Source: a virus
Taxonomy: Duplodnaviria > Caudoviricetes
Length of the DNA stretch: 64,000 bases
Virus record (IMG/VR): IMGVR_UViG_3300037067_002302
Coordinates: 4,913-68,912 of that record
Reading direction: 5' to 3' (one strand)
Every line of letters begins with the position of its first letter. The first letter of the stretch is position 1. Below, in pieces: positions 1-64,000 of the stretch. Below the pieces are notes generated by a model. It did not search any database. It was not told where the DNA came from and saw only the letters and a program-made list of their open reading frames with translations. The translations under genes were made by a program, and so were the position numbers.

Positions 1-2
1 CA

Positions 3-86
3 TTTGTGGCACTTCACAAGAAATATAACCGCAAAGAGTATTTTAGCGTTCGGCCTATTGAGATTGAGGAAAGGAAAAAGAAATAA
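3..86 (+). CDS. 3' end of an upstream gene (partial, ...FVALHKKYNRKEYFSVRPIEIEERKKK*)
   Basis: Open frame from base 3 to TAA at 84-86, overlapping the ATG of the next gene (TAATG coupling). Confidence 0.5.
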   Translation, partial: FVALHKKYNRKEYFSVRPIEIEERKKK

Positions 87-682
87 TGAGAACAAAGAAA
101 ACGGAAGAAATGACGATAATTCTACCGCAGTTGTCCATTGAGACAATGGAACTAACGCTTACAGGAGACTCACCGCTTATCTGTCATAAATGGAGCGAAA
201 AGGCAAAGAAGGAAATGCTCGCCAAGCAAATGAAACAGCCACAGCAGGCAAAGGAAGCGAAAGACCCTCGACAGGACTATGAAGACTCGCTTTATAAACT
301 CCCTGATGGTGGTTACGGTTTCCCTGCTGTCGCGTTTAAGGCCGCTGCTGTTGATGCTTGCAGTCACATTGACGGCGTGACAAAGGTCACAGCTCGTGGA
401 GCATTTCACATTATCGGCGATATGGTCAAGATAGACGGCGAACCTTCAATGCGCGAAGATATGGTGCGAATAGGCATGGGTACGGCTGACATCCGGTATC
501 GTGGAGAGTTCCGTGAGTGGAGTGCTACATTCATAATTCGTTACAATAAAAACGTTATCTCGCCTGAGCAGATTGTGAACCTGTTCAACACGGCGGGATT
601 TGCTGTTGGAATTGGAGAATGGCGACCGCAGAAGGATGGGTCATTTGGTATGAACTCTGTTGCCAAGTGGAAGAAACTCTGA
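86..682 (+). CDS. Cas7/RAMP-like phage protein (putative Vipr-type RNA-binding effector)
   Basis: 198 aa. N-terminal LTLTGDSPLICHKW strand, GFPAVAFKAA helix motif (compare Cas7/Csm3 IPGSSxKG) and C-terminal glycine-rich loop GFAVGIGEWRPQKDGSFG. Directly followed by a GGY-NN array. Confidence 0.7.
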   Translation: MRTKKTEEMTIILPQLSIETMELTLTGDSPLICHKWSEKAKKEMLAKQMKQPQQAKEAKDPRQDYEDSLYKLPDGGYGFPAVAFKAAAVDACSHIDGVTKVTARGAFHIIGDMVKIDGEPSMREDMVRIGMGTADIRYRGEFREWSATFIIRYNKNVISPEQIVNLFNTAGFAVGIGEWRPQKDGSFGMNSVAKWKKL

Positions 683-694
683 CGAAGTGTGTAT

Positions 695-958
695 GGCAGG
701 CATGGCGCGTTATGTCCTGGTTCGGAGGGGTACGGTAAGGCAGGCGAGGCGAGGGTAGTACGGTGGGTCTAGTCCAGGTAAGTTATGGCAGGCATGGCGA
801 GTTGGGTTGTGGTGTGCTTGGATGGTTCTGGCAAGGCAGGCGGGGCGGGTTCCGGCATGGTCAGGGTGGCCGTAAGAGGCATGGTTTGGCAGGCTAGGCG
901 GGTCGGTATGGGGCGGGTCTTGGTCAGGTGGGGACGGTTCTGGTAGGACATGGCAGGC
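695..958 (+). repeat. GGY-NN pentamer array with six GGCAGGC delimiters (putative guide-RNA array)
   Basis: GGCAGGC at 695, 739, 787, 835, 888 and 952 (spacings 44, 48, 48, 53, 64). Between them is a 5-nt periodicity, e.g. GGC-AT GGC-GC GTT-AT GTC-CT GGT-TC GGA-GG GGT-AC GGT-AA. No credible + strand ORF. Confidence 0.85.
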
Positions 959-1075
959 GAGTCACAAGCGTAGGGTGCATAGTTAGTGCCTTTGCCCTCC
1001 AAAAATTCAGGTTGGCGAATTGCAACCGGTTTAACTAGCAAGATAGCAGATGGGACAGAAGGGAGTAGTTGGAGA

Positions 1076-1426
1076 ATGACGATTACAATATCAGAAGTGA
1101 AGCGTAAATGTATGATTCTGCCCGCTGACACGATTTATGATACATCAATCGGTAATCTTATAGCCGAGATGTTGCCAGCGTTGGAATATACACTTGCCGA
1201 TGCTTATCTATCGGATACAGGGAATCTGAATCTACAGGCGGCTCTCAATCTAGGTATGCTTGAGATTATATCGGGCGAATTCCTTCATCAATTGAGCAGG
1301 GAAATGCGTTGTGATAAAGAATTTTCAGTGGGCGGACTTGCCCTAGAAGAGATAGGTGAGCGTGGGCGGGAATTGATAAAGCAGGGAGCATCCAGGCTGG
1401 CTCCATTCCTAAGGACGGTTCGATAG
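1076..1426 (+). CDS. Head-tail connector/adaptor-like protein (gp6/gp15-like), orphan copy
   Basis: 116 aa from ATG 1076 (track ORF 986-1426). MTITISEVKRKCMILPADTIYDTSIGNLIAEM resembles the N-terminus of helical head-tail adaptors. Resemblance from memory only. Confidence 0.4.
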   Translation: MTITISEVKRKCMILPADTIYDTSIGNLIAEMLPALEYTLADAYLSDTGNLNLQAALNLGMLEIISGEFLHQLSREMRCDKEFSVGGLALEEIGERGRELIKQGASRLAPFLRTVR

Positions 1427-1428
1427 AC

Positions 1429-1503
1429 TTTGCCGCCCAATAAATAAACCCGCTGACGGCTCAGGGTGGCAAAACGGGAGGCTGGTTGGGCGACTGGCCT
1501 CCC
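1429..1503 (+). terminator. Two hairpins after the RAMP/array/connector unit
   Basis: TTTGCCGCCC/GGGTGGCAAA (1429-1473) and GGGAGGC/GCCTCCC (1476-1503). Confidence 0.4.
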
Positions 1504-1517
1504 AACTTAACAAAAAA

Positions 1518-1547
1518 TTGACAATCATACATTCCACCTGGTATAAT
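1518..1547 (+). promoter_or_regulatory. Sigma70-type promoter
   Basis: TTGACA-N18-TATAAT with extended -10 TG. Confidence 0.8.
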
Positions 1548-1554
1548 GGAACTA

Positions 1555-1707
1555 GCGAAAACAAGAACAGTTAAATGAGCGGCGCTTTTTTATTAGGTAG
1601 TCTTATAACGGCTGTCCATACCACTAAAACGGTCATGGACATAAATGGCGGGCTTGTACGGCTGTTCTTGTTTTCGCAAATAAGGCGCGGCTCAGTGCAG
1701 GCCCGCC
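1555..1707 (+). ncRNA. C4-like antisense RNA cassette 1 plus downstream target sites
   Basis: Perfect 16-bp closing stem 1555-1570/1662-1677. Internal TGAGCGGCGC and GGCGGGCTTGTAC are complementary to downstream GCGCGGCTCA (1685-1694) and GTGCAGGCCCGCC (1695-1707). Confidence 0.7.
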
Positions 1708-1726
1708 GTTTTATGTACAGAGGTAG

Positions 1727-2470
1727 ATGTTATGCCATATAAGGACAAGGAAAAAACGCCGCGAACATGATAAACAGTGGAGAGACAACAATCGTGAAAA
1801 GATAAGGAAATATCAAAAGAAATATAGAGATAATAATCCCGATAAAATAAAAGAGAGGTTGAGGGTTTACCGAGATACTCACTTACAAGAAATGCGGGAA
1901 TATTCAAAACGTTGTCGGGAAGCACATCTAGATTGCATCAAAGAACGCCAGAGGTGTTATCGCGAGGCAAATCGTGAACGCATAAATGAATCGCGAAAAC
2001 GTTGGCGCAAGTTACATTCCGAACAATATAATAAAAAACATTGCGAAGAATCGAAATGTTACCGGAAGGCACACCCAGAACAAAATAAGCTCTGGCGCAA
2101 GGCACATCCAGAGCGAATTAAAGAATATACGAGGCGTTATCATGAGTCGCATCCTAATAATTATCGCAATTGGCAAAAGGCAAACGCTGATATATGCCGA
2201 GCAAACAATCATCGCAGGCGGGCCAGGTTCACAGAAGTAGAAAATACTCTTACTGTCAAAGAATGGCAAATCATAAAAGATACTTATAAGCACAAGTGTG
2301 TCTACTGCGGCAAGAAGCTGAAGAACCTGACGATGGATCATGTCATACCAATCTCGAAAGGTGGAGGGCATACCAAGGAGAATGTAGTGCCCGCTTGTAA
2401 GTCATGTAATTCTCGTAAGCGAGATCGTGAAGCACCCGCATTTCAGAGAGCGTTATTATACGCTGAATAA
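1727..2470 (+). CDS. HNH endonuclease with long charged helical-repeat N-terminus
   Basis: C-terminal CVYCG...TMDHVIPISKGGGHTKENVVPACKSCNSRK. N-terminal W/YRxxNxE repeats. Confidence 0.85.
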   Translation: MLCHIRTRKKRREHDKQWRDNNREKIRKYQKKYRDNNPDKIKERLRVYRDTHLQEMREYSKRCREAHLDCIKERQRCYREANRERINESRKRWRKLHSEQYNKKHCEESKCYRKAHPEQNKLWRKAHPERIKEYTRRYHESHPNNYRNWQKANADICRANNHRRRARFTEVENTLTVKEWQIIKDTYKHKCVYCGKKLKNLTMDHVIPISKGGGHTKENVVPACKSCNSRKRDREAPAFQRALLYAE

Positions 2471-2481
2471 GGAGTGGAAAT

Positions 2482-2724
2482 ATGAGATGTAAAACTTGTG
2501 AAAACACCATCCAGAATGTACCGGCGCACCTGCGGGATGCTGCGACCTGGATATGCCATCGGTGCTCGTGCAGCGACCATACGACTGTAGTTGCCGCAAT
2601 GGTCAGGGCGGATGAGATAGAGGCCGACAAGCATCGCCACAATGGCAAAAAGCGCGGCAAGCCGATAACTATTGCGCCGAGAGGTGCAGGGATACCGACG
2701 TGTAGGCCGAGAGGAAAGGTATGA
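2482..2724 (+). CDS. Hypothetical Zn-binding protein
   Basis: CxxC...CxxC; RBS GGAG; operon packing. Confidence 0.55.
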   Translation: MRCKTCENTIQNVPAHLRDAATWICHRCSCSDHTTVVAAMVRADEIEADKHRHNGKKRGKPITIAPRGAGIPTCRPRGKV

Positions 2725-2921
2725 AATATACAAAAGCAAAACTTGAGAGGATGTTGTCACTCCTACTTGATCGTTCGGTATTCATACCTTGTAAGCATTG
2801 TATTTGCAGCGATGACAAAGGTCACTGTGAATATCTTTTTGCTGGGTCTTGCCCGCAGTCTATTTGCGCCAAACTTGAAAGACTGGCTGATGAAGCGGCG
2901 AAGAAAGGTGGTGTGAAATAG
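2721..2921 (+). CDS. Hypothetical Cys-rich protein
   Basis: ATGA overlap; RBS GAGGAAAGG. Confidence 0.6.
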   Translation: MKYTKAKLERMLSLLLDRSVFIPCKHCICSDDKGHCEYLFAGSCPQSICAKLERLADEAAKKGGVK

Positions 2922-2922
2922 A

Positions 2923-3147
2923 ATGCGAATCGTTATAGATGGCACAGAGATTGGTTTTGCCATACAGACGAAAGATGATCTCGTGAAGTGTATCGAAGAG
3001 TGTAAAGATAGGGTTGTGAATGAGATATATAGCAATCTCTCAAACGAAGAAATACGTGACGTTCTCGTATCGAGCGAATACCGTGTGGGAGAACGCTTGA
3101 TAATGGAAGCAGGCAATAGATTAATGGAAGGTGGTGTGAAAAAGTGA
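2923..3147 (+). CDS. Hypothetical protein
   Basis: Operon packing; ends GGVKK like the previous gene (GGVK). Confidence 0.6.
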   Translation: MRIVIDGTEIGFAIQTKDDLVKCIEECKDRVVNEIYSNLSNEEIRDVLVSSEYRVGERLIMEAGNRLMEGGVKK

Positions 3148-3323
3148 GCATTAAGGAAAGAGGCTTTGCCTCAATGGACGCGGATAAGCAGCGCGAGATA
3201 GCGCGTAAGGGCGGTCGATCCGCGCATGAGAAGGGAACGGCCCATGAGTGGGACAGTGAGGAAGCCAAGGCAGCCGGACGTAAGGGCGGCGAAGCGAAGA
3301 GAGCCAAGAACGGTACGGCTTAA
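3144..3323 (+). CDS. KGG-repeat (general stress protein, YciG/Con-10-like) small protein
   Basis: 59 aa from GTG, not in track: MSIKERGFASMDADKQREIARKGGRSAHEKGTAHEWDSEEAKAAGRKGGEAKRAKNGTA. Confidence 0.85.
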   Translation: MSIKERGFASMDADKQREIARKGGRSAHEKGTAHEWDSEEAKAAGRKGGEAKRAKNGTA

Positions 3324-3368
3324 TTTTTTTTGGCACTAAGGTTGAGGCTGTGGGTGTGGGTGTGGAAA

Positions 3369-3638
3369 ATGAGTGATTGTACGCGTTGTGGTAAATGTTG
3401 CCGCGAAGAAGTCTGTTTTATAGGGAGAATGGCATTGCTCTCAGATAAAACACCTTGCCCTGCGCTGTATCAGGAAGGTGACGGAAAATATTCATGCGCA
3501 TTTGTCTCTTTCGAGAGGGATATGGGAGTGGAGCCGTTAATAGCTGAAAGCCTTGGTATCGGTAAGGGATGCACCTACAATTGTGAGTTTGTAGAACTTG
3601 AGCAGCATGGACAAATAGCACTTAGTATTGATTGTTGA
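3369..3638 (+). CDS. Cys-rich protein (CxxCGxCC; YkgJ-like metal cluster)
   Basis: MSDCTRCGKCCREEVC...CPAL...CAF...GKGC. Confidence 0.55.
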   Translation: MSDCTRCGKCCREEVCFIGRMALLSDKTPCPALYQEGDGKYSCAFVSFERDMGVEPLIAESLGIGKGCTYNCEFVELEQHGQIALSIDC

Positions 3639-3665
3639 CGGGCGGCGGGAGCGGTCAGGAAATGC

Positions 3666-3695
3666 TTGACAGTTGAGCGCGGGATGCGCTAAAAT
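3666..3695 (+). promoter_or_regulatory. Sigma70-type promoter
   Basis: TTGACA-N18-TAAAAT. Confidence 0.7.
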
Positions 3696-3702
3696 ATATG
3701 TA

Positions 3703-3856
3703 GCGAATAGAAGGACGGTTTAAGGATGAGCCGCTTTTTTAATGTAAAATTTAATATTAGTCATGCCATTACACCTGAGATAGTAGTGGCATTCAATGGC
3801 GAGTTTGCAGAACCTCCTTCTATTCGCGTATTAGGGCGGCTCATTGCAGACTCGCC
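3703..3856 (+). ncRNA. C4-like antisense RNA cassette 2 plus downstream target sites
   Basis: Perfect 13-bp closing stem 3703-3715/3815-3827. Internal ATGAGCCGC (3726-3734) and GGCGAGTTTGCA (3798-3809) are complementary to GCGGCTCAT (3836-3844) and TGCAGACTCGCC (3845-3856). Confidence 0.7.
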
Positions 3857-3888: not shown

Positions 3889-4734
3889 ATGGCTAGGAAA
3901 AGAATGATTGATCCTTCGATATGGGATGATGAGGATGTGGGATCGCTTTCAGATGGAGCATTTAGAGTTTTTGTTGCCTGCTTTTCAAATGCGGATGATG
4001 AGGGACGCTTAGAAGCATCCCCTCGGAGAATTAAGGGAATTGCATTTGGTTTTAAGGATTCAGTAACAATTGAGGATGTCGAGAATTATCTTTTGGAGTG
4101 TGCGAATGGTATCCGATCATTCGTCTACTATTCGTCGAATGATCGTCGAATAGTAGAATTACGAAACTGGCACACTTATCAAAAAATAGACCGTCCCCAA
4201 GCTTCAAAGTTACCTAAATACGATGAGAATTCGGTAATCGTCGAACGTTCGACGAATGATCGACGAATGATCGACGACCGTTCGTCTGTAATAGAAAAGA
4301 ATAGAATAGAACAGAATAGAAGTAGTAGAAGTGCCGCAATTGCTTTCGATGCTAGCGTACCAGGAGACCCGGACAACAACCCCCACTCTTGTTTTATACA
4401 ACTTATAAACATACACCCGACGGGAGCCGACACCCAAGGTATATCCACATGTATGAAACTTCACGGCAATGAGATAACCATCGAGGCCATCCGCGAAGGA
4501 GGATTACAAGGTAAAGACCGTTGGAGTTATATAGCAAAGGACATTCTGCCAGGGATTATTGAGGCGCATAAACAATCCGAACTCAATGATTATACCGCCG
4601 ATGGCACATACAAGCCGCGCAAACCGTCACCAGGCATGAAGTTAGTTGAAGCTAATTTAGAGTTAGAACGAAAGCATCTTGCGAGATTGGAGGCTAAACG
4701 TCTTGAGCAGCAAGAAAAACGCGACACCGAATGA
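3889..4734 (+). CDS. Phage replication initiator / replisome organiser
   Basis: MARKRMIDPSIW...ADDEGRL N-terminus typical of phage initiators; contains iterons; precedes DnaB. Confidence 0.75.
   Translation: MARKRMIDPSIWDDEDVGSLSDGAFRVFVACFSNADDEGRLEASPRRIKGIAFGFKDSVTIEDVENYLLECANGIRSFVYYSSNDRRIVELRNWHTYQKIDRPQASKLPKYDENSVIVERSTNDRRMIDDRSSVIEKNRIEQNRSSRSAAIAFDASVPGDPDNNPHSCFIQLINIHPTGADTQGISTCMKLHGNEITIEAIREGGLQGKDRWSYIAKDILPGIIEAHKQSELNDYTADGTYKPRKPSPGMKLVEANLELERKHLARLEAKRLEQQEKRDTE
4132..4331. repeat. Putative replication origin iterons inside the initiator gene
   Basis: 11-bp TCG(T/A)CGAAYGN-like units at 4132, 4143, 4238, 4249, 4260 and 4271, then an AATAG-rich purine tract at 4290-4331. 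Confidence 0.65.
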
Positions 4735-4744
4735 AATAGCCTCT

Positions 4745-6094
4745 ATGGGTTATGAACCTCCGAACAACATTGACGCGGAGCAATGCGTGCTTAGTGCAAT
4801 GATGCTTGATACGAAAGCCATACCCGTAGTTGCTTCAATGATCGGAAAGAATGATTTTTACAGGCCAGCTCATGGAGAAATATACGAGGCTATTTGGGCG
4901 CTATTTCAAGAGAAAAAGCCCGCCGACACAATTATGGTTCAGGAGGAGTTGAGAAAGCGCGGCATCCTCGATGAATGCGGCGGACAAGAATATCTCATGG
5001 CGATAATATATCAGCTTCCTTCTTCATCAAGGGCGGAATATTATGCTGAGATCGTTAAGGACAAGTCTGAACTGAGGGAACTTGCCAAGCTCGGTCGTGA
5101 AATACATGCCGATTGTTTCTTGACCAACACGACCGCCGCCGAATCGAGGGAAATGGCGATAACAAAACTACTGTCACTCAATAACAAAACAGCGCGTAGC
5201 GGACTCGTAAAAGTGGCTGAGGTCGTCACGGAGGTACATGAAGACATAGATAAAGCCGTCAGTGGTGAGAGTTTACCACTTGGACTAATGACCGGTATCA
5301 GGTCGGTTGATTCTATCACCACAGGCTTACAGGTCGGCTTGAATGTCATCGCGGCAAGGCCAAGCGCCGGTAAAACCGCGTTGATGCTTCAGATAGCGCG
5401 TAATAATAATGTCCCTATTGCATTCTTCAGCCTTGAAACTACCGCAAAGCAACTCGTAAGGAGGCTTATCACGGCGGGAACGGGTGTAAGTAATTATCAG
5501 ATGCGGCGCGGATTTCTCGACGAAGAAGAAATCAATATTGTTACCGACACCGTAAACACGATTTATAACATGCCATTCTATATTTACGATAAAGGATGCG
5601 ATATAAGCCGAATCATCGCTATGAGTAACCGCGCTAAACTCCAATATGGGATCGGCGCGGTAATGGTGGATTACTTACAACTCATCACGACAAGAGGCAA
5701 TTTCGGCTCGCGGGAACAGGAAGTGACCTATATAGCGCGTTCACTGCATGATTTGTCAATGCAGTTGGATATTCCAGTTATTGCCGCAAGTCAGTTAAAG
5801 CGACTACCCGAAGCGCGAAGAATGTCTAAACCATCCAAGGATGATTTACGCGAATCAGGTGAGATTGAAGCTGTTGCGTATTGTGTCATCCTACTGCACA
5901 ATCCTAAGCCTGAAATAGACGAAGGCAGTCCAAGGGATGCTTCTATTATAATCGCCAAATACAAAGACGGTACGACAAGCGATGTAGATGTTAAGTGGGA
6001 GGGCAAGCGGATAACATTTTACGATATTGAAACCAGACACGAGGAGGATCAATCGGATGCAGAAGACAAGCGAACCGCCTATTGGCGAAAATAG
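4745..6094 (+). CDS. dnaB: Replicative DNA helicase
   Basis: PPNNIDAEQCVL N-terminus, Walker A AARPSAGKT, VMVDYLQL, SQLKR, DLRESGEIE. Start may be upstream (track 4679). Confidence 0.95.
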   Translation: MGYEPPNNIDAEQCVLSAMMLDTKAIPVVASMIGKNDFYRPAHGEIYEAIWALFQEKKPADTIMVQEELRKRGILDECGGQEYLMAIIYQLPSSSRAEYYAEIVKDKSELRELAKLGREIHADCFLTNTTAAESREMAITKLLSLNNKTARSGLVKVAEVVTEVHEDIDKAVSGESLPLGLMTGIRSVDSITTGLQVGLNVIAARPSAGKTALMLQIARNNNVPIAFFSLETTAKQLVRRLITAGTGVSNYQMRRGFLDEEEINIVTDTVNTIYNMPFYIYDKGCDISRIIAMSNRAKLQYGIGAVMVDYLQLITTRGNFGSREQEVTYIARSLHDLSMQLDIPVIAASQLKRLPEARRMSKPSKDDLRESGEIEAVAYCVILLHNPKPEIDEGSPRDASIIIAKYKDGTTSDVDVKWEGKRITFYDIETRHEEDQSDAEDKRTAYWRK

Positions 6095-63476: not shown

Positions 63477-64000
63477 ATGTGTCAACCAGCATCGGGAGTA
63501 TTGACGAAAGACCATGCCTTTTGGTCTAAAAAAACCGAGTCGCACTCGGAGATCATACAGGAATTCAACCTACATGCGGACGGCGTTGGTGGGCCGAATG
63601 TCCTGCAATTCGAGATAACACCGCCTAATGGCGACTTTACGAAACCGTTAGAGGAGTGGAGATACAGGGTCGATCAGGATGTAACGCCGGAGTGGTACGA
63701 TCCCGCGAAGGATGAAACAAGAGCGCGGAGTATATTACAGGACTGGATAGCCGCGAAGGTCGTGTTGCCTGGTCAAATACGAGTTGTCAATCGAGGCGAA
63801 ATGGTAATTGCTTGTTACGGCACGGTGCAGTATGTCAACCAGGGCGGCACGGTGCAGGATGTCAACCAGGGCGGCACGGTGCAGGATGTCAACCAGGGCG
63901 GCATGGTGCAGTATGTCAACCAGGGCGGCACGGTGCAGTATGTCAACCAGGGCGGCACGGTGCAGTATGTCAACGGCACGGTGCAGTATGTCAACGGCAC
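63477..64000 (+). CDS. Beta-solenoid repeat protein (partial; runs off the window; not in track)
   Basis: MCQPASGVLT...SHSEII... then GTVQ(Y/D)VNQG repeats; RBS AGGAGAGGAG. Confidence 0.75.
   Translation, partial: MCQPASGVLTKDHAFWSKKTESHSEIIQEFNLHADGVGGPNVLQFEITPPNGDFTKPLEEWRYRVDQDVTPEWYDPAKDETRARSILQDWIAAKVVLPGQIRVVNRGEMVIACYGTVQYVNQGGTVQDVNQGGTVQDVNQGGMVQYVNQGGTVQYVNQGGTVQYVNGTVQYVNG
63819..64000 (+). repeat. In-frame tandem repeat: 5 x 27 bp, then 2 x 21 bp, then a partial unit
   Basis: GGCACGGTGCAG(T/G)ATGTCAACCAGGGC units at 63819, 63846, 63873, 63900 and 63927; 21-bp units at 63954 and 63975. Confidence 0.9.

Follow-up and report, generated by a model that had tools for sequence, protein, structure and literature searches.

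VIPR (Viral Interference Programmable Repeat) systems have been described in 2026 preprints, the available portions of which present them as combinations of a small RAMP protein, Vipr, with vrRNAs consisting of 9–16 GGY/NN repeats. Pairing with DNA is made by the NN bases, one base being skipped in each repeat, and guiding of DNA binding by vrRNAs through these bases has been shown experimentally for SUSP1 and for a P. fulva prophage (bioRxiv 10.64898/2026.04.26.720920). The legend of Fig. S18 of the same preprint also introduces "staggered arrays", in which the vrRNAs arise from positions that overlap by 1 nt. The Escherichia phage SUSP1 carries a type II VIPR comprising Vipr, vap1, and four vrRNAs, with the structure deposited as PDB 36pp; residues H17, R138, D177, W178, and R179 of its Vipr make the contacts to the GGY triplet (G1, G2, and Y3) (bioRxiv 10.64898/2026.04.26.720927). 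As far as the available text describes them, the vrRNAs of SUSP1 are ~100 nt long, with 9–16 repeats and a conserved 3′ pseudoknot tail of ~40 nt. A later survey reports, in its accessible part, Vipr-linked 5-nt arrays with triplets other than GGY, for example GAC, CAC, WGT, and TGH (bioRxiv 10.64898/2026.10.21.760802). The RAMP fold is shared with the backbone of class 1 CRISPR complexes, formed by Cas7/Csm3 on crRNA, and Vipr is likewise thought to polymerise along its guide RNA with periodic flipping of bases. The period is nevertheless different, since each 5-nt step of VIPR exposes two bases for reading and hides the other three, whereas CRISPR has a 6-nt step with one base flipped, and the target of VIPR is read with gaps.

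The locus described here is very probably a VIPR locus, consisting of vipr and a vrRNA guide array; it represents a kind already in print in the 2026 preprints, of which it is a tail-less, staggered example. It is found in a 64,000-nt stretch of DNA of a phage (Caudoviricetes; IMG/VR record IMGVR_UViG_3300037067_002302, positions 4,913–68,912), referred to below as the window, and lies within the early-gene region of the phage, beside the genes of an Erf/Rad52-like annealing protein, an HNH endonuclease, a replication initiator, and DnaB. The non-coding interval 683–1075 that contains the array is bordered on the left by an ORF of 198 residues (86–682) and on the right by an ORF of 116 residues (1076–1426), both on the + strand. 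Positions 1–1500 of the window were found only in DNA metagenome runs, from landfill and groundwater, no RNA dataset being listed for them, and a blastn search with positions 1–3000 gave no match among GenBank phages. The assembly that includes the contig of the window (G000) has 295 contigs, which total 4.85 Mb, and a contamination of 6.4%; the other 33 genomes of its family measure 0.7–2.6 Mb. The bin may contain foreign contigs, so the host of the phage is not fixed by the binning. Two sets of repeats are located elsewhere in the window. Inside the replication-initiator gene (3889–4734), positions 4237–4321 carry a tandem 11-nt repeat (3.7 copies) together with 5/15-nt repeats, which are probably origin iterons. 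At the other end, a 27-nt tandem repeat (63818–64000, 6.8 copies, 92% matches) reaches the end of the window and may be a coding repeat or a terminal feature.

The gene vipr (86–682, + strand) encodes a Cas7-like RAMP protein of 198 residues, identified through homology to chain D of PDB 36pp, its fold, and its contact residues. A phmmer search with the protein of the window matched 36pp_D, named "SUSP1 Vipr protein", with E 6.2e-7, and a profile built from 66 sequences of the family matched the same chain with E 6.3e-14 over nearly its full length (profile positions 24–197, chain residues 4–189). The AlphaFold2 model of the protein (pLDDT 96.4, pTM 0.89) was compared by Foldseek with the PDB, where the top matches were Csm3, type VII Cas7, and Cas7-11, with Cmr4 also present (best E 2e-7; 134 chains with E ≤ 0.001). 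In the alignment with SUSP1 Vipr, residues H34, R139, E178, W179, and R180 of the window protein correspond to H17, R138, D177, W178, and R179, so that the residues contacting G1, G2, and Y3 are kept, the only difference being the replacement of D177 by the likewise acidic E178. R139 and R180 are invariant in all 66 aligned members of the family. In the PHROG classification the protein is assigned to phrog_4652, of unknown function, and no Pfam or PADLOC family matched it. The family as a whole is large, with 7,595 of 7,637 candidates matching at E ≤ 0.001 when counted in 90% clusters, and 4,026 clusters at 50% identity. Unlike a class 1 CRISPR locus, the window lacks CRISPR repeats and spacers, and this single RAMP-like gene is not accompanied by other cas genes; the tandem-repeat listing holds no repeat-spacer array, and none of the three proteins tested belongs to a Pfam or PADLOC family. 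Once the homology of Vipr had been recognised, several earlier ideas about the tract were given up: a binding site of a TRAP-like ring protein (a triplet with a 2-nt spacer), an R-loop tract rich in G, a site where Rho would load on the opposite strand, and a terminase or centromere repeat.

The array (695–965, + strand) starts 12 nt after the end of vipr and comprises five full units followed by a short terminal one. Positions 685–965 contain 46.1% G and 16.1% C, with 27–28% G in the flanks, and the autocorrelation of GG in the tract has its maxima at lags 4–5 and 9–10; in the other G-rich stretches of the assembly, which are mostly coding, the maxima are found at lags 3, 6, and 12. The tract is built of 5-nt units, each with a fixed G-G/T-Y triplet and two free bases (NN). 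It was parsed by dynamic programming, in which a 5-nt step was rewarded when it opened with G-G-Y and steps of 4 or 6 nt were charged. The score of the array was 71, compared with 16.6 ± 7.7 (maximum 44) for 500 first-order Markov surrogates, corresponding to a z of 7.1, and with 15.1 ± 5.1 for 500 mononucleotide shuffles. The triplet is GGY in 26 of the 46 pentamers (57%) and G[GT]Y in 38 (83%), GTY alone accounting for 26%. Two approaches do not report the array: Tandem Repeats Finder (score ≥ 30) has no entry over 695–965, and a strict fixed-register caller that demands at least 6 units with at least 70% GGY does not call it.

Each unit opens with GGCA. Unit 1 (695–738, + strand) continues with eight pentamers (699–738), the NN bases of which are AT GC AT CT TC GG AC AA, and unit 5 (888–951, + strand) with twelve (892–951), although the register of its first third becomes ambiguous when the slip penalty is low. 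The three units between them, all on the + strand, are each interrupted by one internal 4-nt step. In unit 2 (739–786), with eight pentamers, this step can be placed at 753–756 or 758–761 in equal readings; in unit 3 (787–834), also with eight pentamers, it is located at 811–814, and in unit 4 (835–887), with nine pentamers, at 864–867. The number of pentamers between GGCA boundaries is thus 8, 8, 8, 9, and 12. The array ends with a terminal piece (952–965, + strand) consisting of GGCA and two pentamers. The original prediction had read unit 1 and unit 5 in exactly this way and had assigned units 2–4 one 4-nt slip each, with lengths of 48, 48, and 53 nt (4+5n+4), all of which was reproduced by the parse. 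The grammar that it described stands as well, but the true starts of the units lie 4 nt earlier than it had placed them, at GGCA, with a span of ~695–965. Its statement that the ends of the units keep GGC or GGT is correct for their beginnings, where the first pentamer after GGCA has GGC in six of six cases and the second in five of six, and not for their last pentamers, only three of five of which have GGY.

The boundaries between the units correspond to the staggered architecture. GGCAGGC starts at 695, 739, 787, 835, 888, and 952, with spacings of 44, 48, 48, 53, and 64 nt, and at each of these points the pentamer GGCAG and the following GGCNN have one G in common. Nine relatives of the clade, parsed in the same manner, contain 49 steps of 4 nt, 40 of them GGCA, and only 3 steps of 6 nt, with mostly 9–13 repeats between steps. 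In a logo of 41 GGCA/G(G/T)Y boundaries, the bases immediately preceding the boundary are rich in A and both of the following pentamers have GGC. Since the GGCA step is conserved in the relatives and fits the legend describing staggered arrays, the boundary slip is a conserved architecture that has already been described. The likeness to those arrays, as the available text presents them, extends to the small Vipr RAMP gene beside GGY/NN pentamers, the phage context, and the absence of spacers or tails between units that overlap by 1 nt (GGCA/GGC in the window). The window differs from them in its mixture of GGY with GTY (57% and 26%), in that no vap gene was found, and in the extra internal 4-nt step in three of its units, a feature outside the description given in the accessible part of the preprint. 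From type II of SUSP1 the window differs in that its units are 44–64 nt long, leave no room between them, and have no detectable tail or fold.

Relatives of the Vipr of the window, found in IMG/VR and in JGI metagenomes, have much cleaner GGC-NN arrays adjoining the gene on the same strand. The position of the array in them varies: it directly follows vipr in locus L145, as it does in the window, it comes after one extra ORF in L002, L003, L144, and L150, and it is located upstream in L148, L151, and L153. The pattern (GGCNN)6GGC is present in an estimated ~2,400 stretches of the viral collection (at least 138 listed), compared with ~240 (at least 121 listed) for the same pattern written backwards as a control. 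Among the matches listed, the Vipr profile matched (E ≤ 0.001) within the 2.5-kb flanks at 60 of the 80 loci fetched, or 50 of 70 per distinct contig, 10 of the 80 loci being second views of the same contigs. All 60 of these matches are encoded by the strand that is G-rich in the array. The 20 loci that lack a match include plain microsatellites (L027 and L040) and may include more distant Viprs. In the fetched loci, 326 tracts run uninterrupted for 8 repeats or more, with lengths clustering at 8–16 and 10 as the commonest, and all 16 dinucleotides are used at their NN positions, each with a frequency of 3.0–10.8%. Identical unit content in distant relatives would be at odds with a reading of the units as individual guides; their NN content is in fact completely different between relatives. 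The phages of L002 and L003, which are near-identical, are distinguished only by changes at the positions NN, Y, and G2 and by the presence of one extra unit.

One of the few differences between L002 and L003 is a change of GGC to GTC, and the same substitution is the rule in a second VIPR locus of the same assembly, located outside the window on contig C100 (2374–3825). The order there is the array, followed by vipr (~2645–3274), the product of which is 47% identical to the Vipr of the window, and then by an ORF (3274–3825) similar to phrog_15946. The array of C100 has four full units of 8, 9, 10, and 9 pentamers, with GGCA between the units as in the window, and its fixed triplet is GTC in 35 of the 36 pentamers of the units. 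Taken together, the window and C100 suggest that position 2 of the triplet can be either G or T. The original prediction had described triplets that degrade, mostly in the middle of the units. Twenty triplets of the window are indeed not GGY, but 12 of them are GTY, and since G[GT]Y reaches 83% in the window and GTC is nearly universal in C100, the GTT and GTC triplets are probably a tolerated scaffold and not the product of decay. The GTC-NN array of C100 and the GTY triplets of the window are departures of the same kind as the non-canonical scaffolds of the survey; GTC/NN is not among the triplets named in its available part, and two triplets occur side by side in one and the same unit of the window, whereas the arrays of the survey use one throughout. 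Nine GGY/GTY-NN pentamers, with NN rich in A/T, form an isolated run on another contig (C98, 4060–4104, − strand), where there is no Vipr match; the run could be a solo vrRNA or a product of chance.

The internal 4-nt steps of units 2–4 have a different character from the boundaries. They are stable at slip penalties of 1.5–6 and under three ways of scoring T at position 2 of the triplet, and they read GGGT or GTAC in unit 2, GGTG in unit 3, and GGGT in unit 4, none of them GGCA. They follow 2–3, 4, and 5 pentamers, respectively, so their position differs from unit to unit. Counted over 695–956, three of the seven 4-nt steps of the window are of this non-GGCA kind and lie inside units, compared with 9 of 49 in the relatives. 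The recurring slip, suggested to be possibly functional, is thus of two kinds: the boundary slip, which is conserved and belongs to a published architecture, and the slips in the middle of the units, which may have arisen as 1-nt deletions, represent irregularities that are tolerated, or mark additional boundaries.

No structure resembling the tail of the SUSP1 vrRNAs was detected in the window. The predicted RNA fold of 683–1075 was not above shuffles (z +1.22) and the 3′ flank (948–1075) had no significant fold (z +0.36); as the array and this flank fold no better than shuffles, the locus has no SUSP1-like tail. Rfam gave nothing at E ≤ 1 for positions 1–3000 and, in the window, only a tRNA away from the array; for six loci with clean arrays it returned one sub-threshold match, to SECIS_4. 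A weak sigma-70-like site (58–87, + strand, 10 of 12 consensus matches) precedes vipr, although the three such sites of the region are no more than the 2.1 ± 1.6 found in shuffles. There is no sigma-70-like site between vipr and the array, and the array would for this reason be co-transcribed with the gene. Further to the right, positions 1518–1547 carry a perfect sigma-70 consensus (TTGACA, 18 nt, TATAAT with TG), 3′ of which lies a long inverted repeat with 16-nt arms at ~1556–1571 and 1662–1677 (within 1518–1690); it has no Rfam match at E ≤ 1 and may represent a small RNA or a hairpin with a regulatory role.

The neighbouring genes differ between the window and its relatives. In many loci vipr is directly followed by a phrog_15946-like ORF of ~170–180 residues, of unknown function, with the conserved sequence "LHPIFEWND". 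It is located at 3600–4115 in L002, and its homologs are found in L003, L144, L148, L150, L022, L044, C100, and others. Its presence in 29 of the fetched loci makes it a candidate accessory gene (vap) of the clade. A tblastn search (E ≤ 0.01) showed that this gene is absent from the contig of the window and that, within the assembly, C100 alone carries a match to it. No vap1-like neighbour accompanies the vipr of the window either, in contrast to SUSP1; an accessory gene next to vipr is usual in VIPR systems but not obligatory. The ORF of 116 residues that follows the array (1076–1426) belongs to no Pfam, PHROG, or PADLOC family, and its homolog in one fetched relative comes after the genes of a protease, a decoration protein, and a major head protein.

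Since one repeat is expected to be bound per protomer, as in SUSP1, the code with a 1-nt skip presumably applies in the window as well. Targets were sought as gapped NN strings with shuffled controls, the method used in the preprints too. The enrichment of gapped matches that would have been expected from the original prediction was absent from the assembly with gaps of 0–3, and patterns with a gap of 1 were not enriched in IMG/VR viral contigs either. When units 1 and 5 were compared with the assembly (4.85 Mb, including other phage-like contigs) with skips of 0–2, the best matches, 15 of 18 and 19–20 of 26 NN bases, respectively, equalled those of shuffled guides; with a skip of 3, the matches above shuffles were the copies of the array itself and a single match of 16 of 18 for unit 1. 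Units 2–4, bridged with gaps of 0–4, also gave results equal to shuffles in the assembly. With the 1-nt skip rule, unit 1 had 14 exact matches in IMG/VR viral contigs, compared with 34 for the backwards control, and these 14 are unrelated sequences except for the pairs L157/L159, near-identical, and L162/L166, 82% alike. Unit 5 had no exact match in IMG/VR under the same rule and, with up to 3 mismatches, none in the 34 genomes of the family of the bin or in a sample of 401 genomes of the phylum.

The guides of other loci behaved similarly. The 255 tracts of 9–20 repeats (out of the 326) were compared with the assembly and the loci, and the distributions of their best matches were the same as for shuffled guides at every skip. 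The only match with one mismatch at skip 1 is located on the contig of the window itself (C7:55456) and is within chance, about 2 such matches being expected, by estimate, over the 255 guides. The guides of C100 matched nothing in the assembly above shuffles, and thus do not indicate cross-targeting of the phage of the window; one clean C100 guide with 9 NN had 2 matches in IMG/VR, the level expected by chance when scaled from the backwards control. The lack of self-targets agrees with the control reported in the available part of the discovery preprint (bioRxiv 10.64898/2026.04.26.720920). The lack of foreign targets is uninformative, because the scans of the collection were for exact matches only and because the competitors of an uncultured phage may be unsequenced.

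The description of the units as distinct guides of variable length rather than a microsatellite is therefore upheld in kind, as the array follows vipr, has the GGY/NN grammar of proven vrRNAs, and varies in content, but it gained nothing from target enrichment for these particular units. Together with the decoding proposed for it, this description anticipates the published mechanism of VIPR. That all five units are active guides as parsed we consider only somewhat better than an even bet, a more cautious figure than that for the locus itself owing to the extra register step in units 2–4 and the absence of a target.

A VIPR array in decay would account for part of the same observations and is, in our judgement, an unlikely explanation that still carries appreciable weight. 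According to it, vipr is intact, while the guides have suffered 1-nt deletions, seen as the mid-unit steps, and substitutions in the scaffold, the accessory gene has been lost, and the array has ceased to direct any useful silencing. The fraction of GGY, 57% in the window compared with 74–84% in L002, L003, L145, L148, and L149, could be taken in this sense, but L144, L151, and L153 are equally low (56, 59, and 60%), and with G[GT]Y as the criterion the window reaches 83%, GTC being the triplet of 35 of the 36 unit pentamers of C100. The higher share of non-GGCA steps (3 of 7, against 9 of 49), the contig devoid of the phrog_15946-like gene, and the failure of the strict caller to recognise the array also point towards decay; on the other hand, the reading frame of Vipr and its contact residues are intact, and the available text of the discovery preprint notes frequent internal degeneracy of vrRNAs (bioRxiv 10.64898/2026.04.26.720920). 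The missing target would fit as well, except that target databases are thin for uncultured environmental phages.

The mid-unit steps could alternatively be given a positive role. In one such proposal, the Vipr of the clade reads a relaxed G-(G/T)-Y triplet and the internal non-GGCA steps are functional register shifts, which either delimit very short guides or join half-guides into a two-part site; we regard this combination as quite improbable. A related explanation, which we rate as very improbable, treats every 4-nt step as a boundary, so that the array would hold not five guides but eight or nine very short vrRNAs (2–12 repeats) or two-part guides. All of the 4-nt steps do have the same geometry, with flanking pentamers overlapping by a single G, and non-GGCA steps of the form GGYN/GGY also occur in the relatives (9 of 49). 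However, pieces of 2–6 repeats would be far below the 9–16 repeats of the characterised vrRNAs, as given in the accessible text (bioRxiv 10.64898/2026.04.26.720920), and below the tract lengths seen here (mostly 8–16, commonest 10), and the internal steps have neither the conserved GGCA nor the A-rich stretch that precedes it, and their position varies from unit to unit. It is scarcely credible that there is no guide array at all and that the tract is a G-rich element of the DNA or transcript (an R-loop-prone tract, protein-binding iterons, an opposite-strand Rho-loading site, a decayed pentanucleotide microsatellite, or an odd coding region), as its composition of 46% G and 16% C over ~270 nt in an early/replication gene neighbourhood and the short overlapping ORFs of 44, 53, and 120 residues might suggest, because this would leave the combination of fixed triplets and free dinucleotides, the conservation of GGCA at the boundaries, and the strand-specific linkage to Vipr (60 of 80 loci) unexplained, while the ORFs match no family in Pfam and PHROG searches, the 5-nt period is not that of codons, Tandem Repeats Finder shows no array, and the probable origin iterons are elsewhere (4237–4321).

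For a functional vrRNA array, the mode of action can be outlined by analogy with SUSP1. The array would be transcribed with vipr or just behind it, and Vipr protomers would bind the RNA, one per 5-nt repeat. Neighbouring pairs of protomers may then grip the fixed G-G/T-Y triplet, leaving the two free bases exposed, and the exposed NN string would pair with double-stranded DNA bearing the same dinucleotides, with one base skipped after each (NNxNNx...). The bound filament might in this way repress transcription of a competing phage or of another mobile element.

VIPR is a recently reported, CRISPR-related means by which phages aim a protein filament at DNA with a gapped RNA code, and the present locus adds one natural example from an uncultured environmental phage, an instance, within a large clade (4,026 clusters at 50% identity), of the "staggered" architecture without tails. 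It is mildly interesting for its scaffold of mixed G and T, for the interruption of three of its units, and for the lack of the accessory gene. A relaxed scaffold and functional register shifts, if true, would widen the VIPR code as published, in which a single NNx string is read without interruption, and the three natural guides that contain a register step could be used to probe how strict the rule of one protomer per five bases is.
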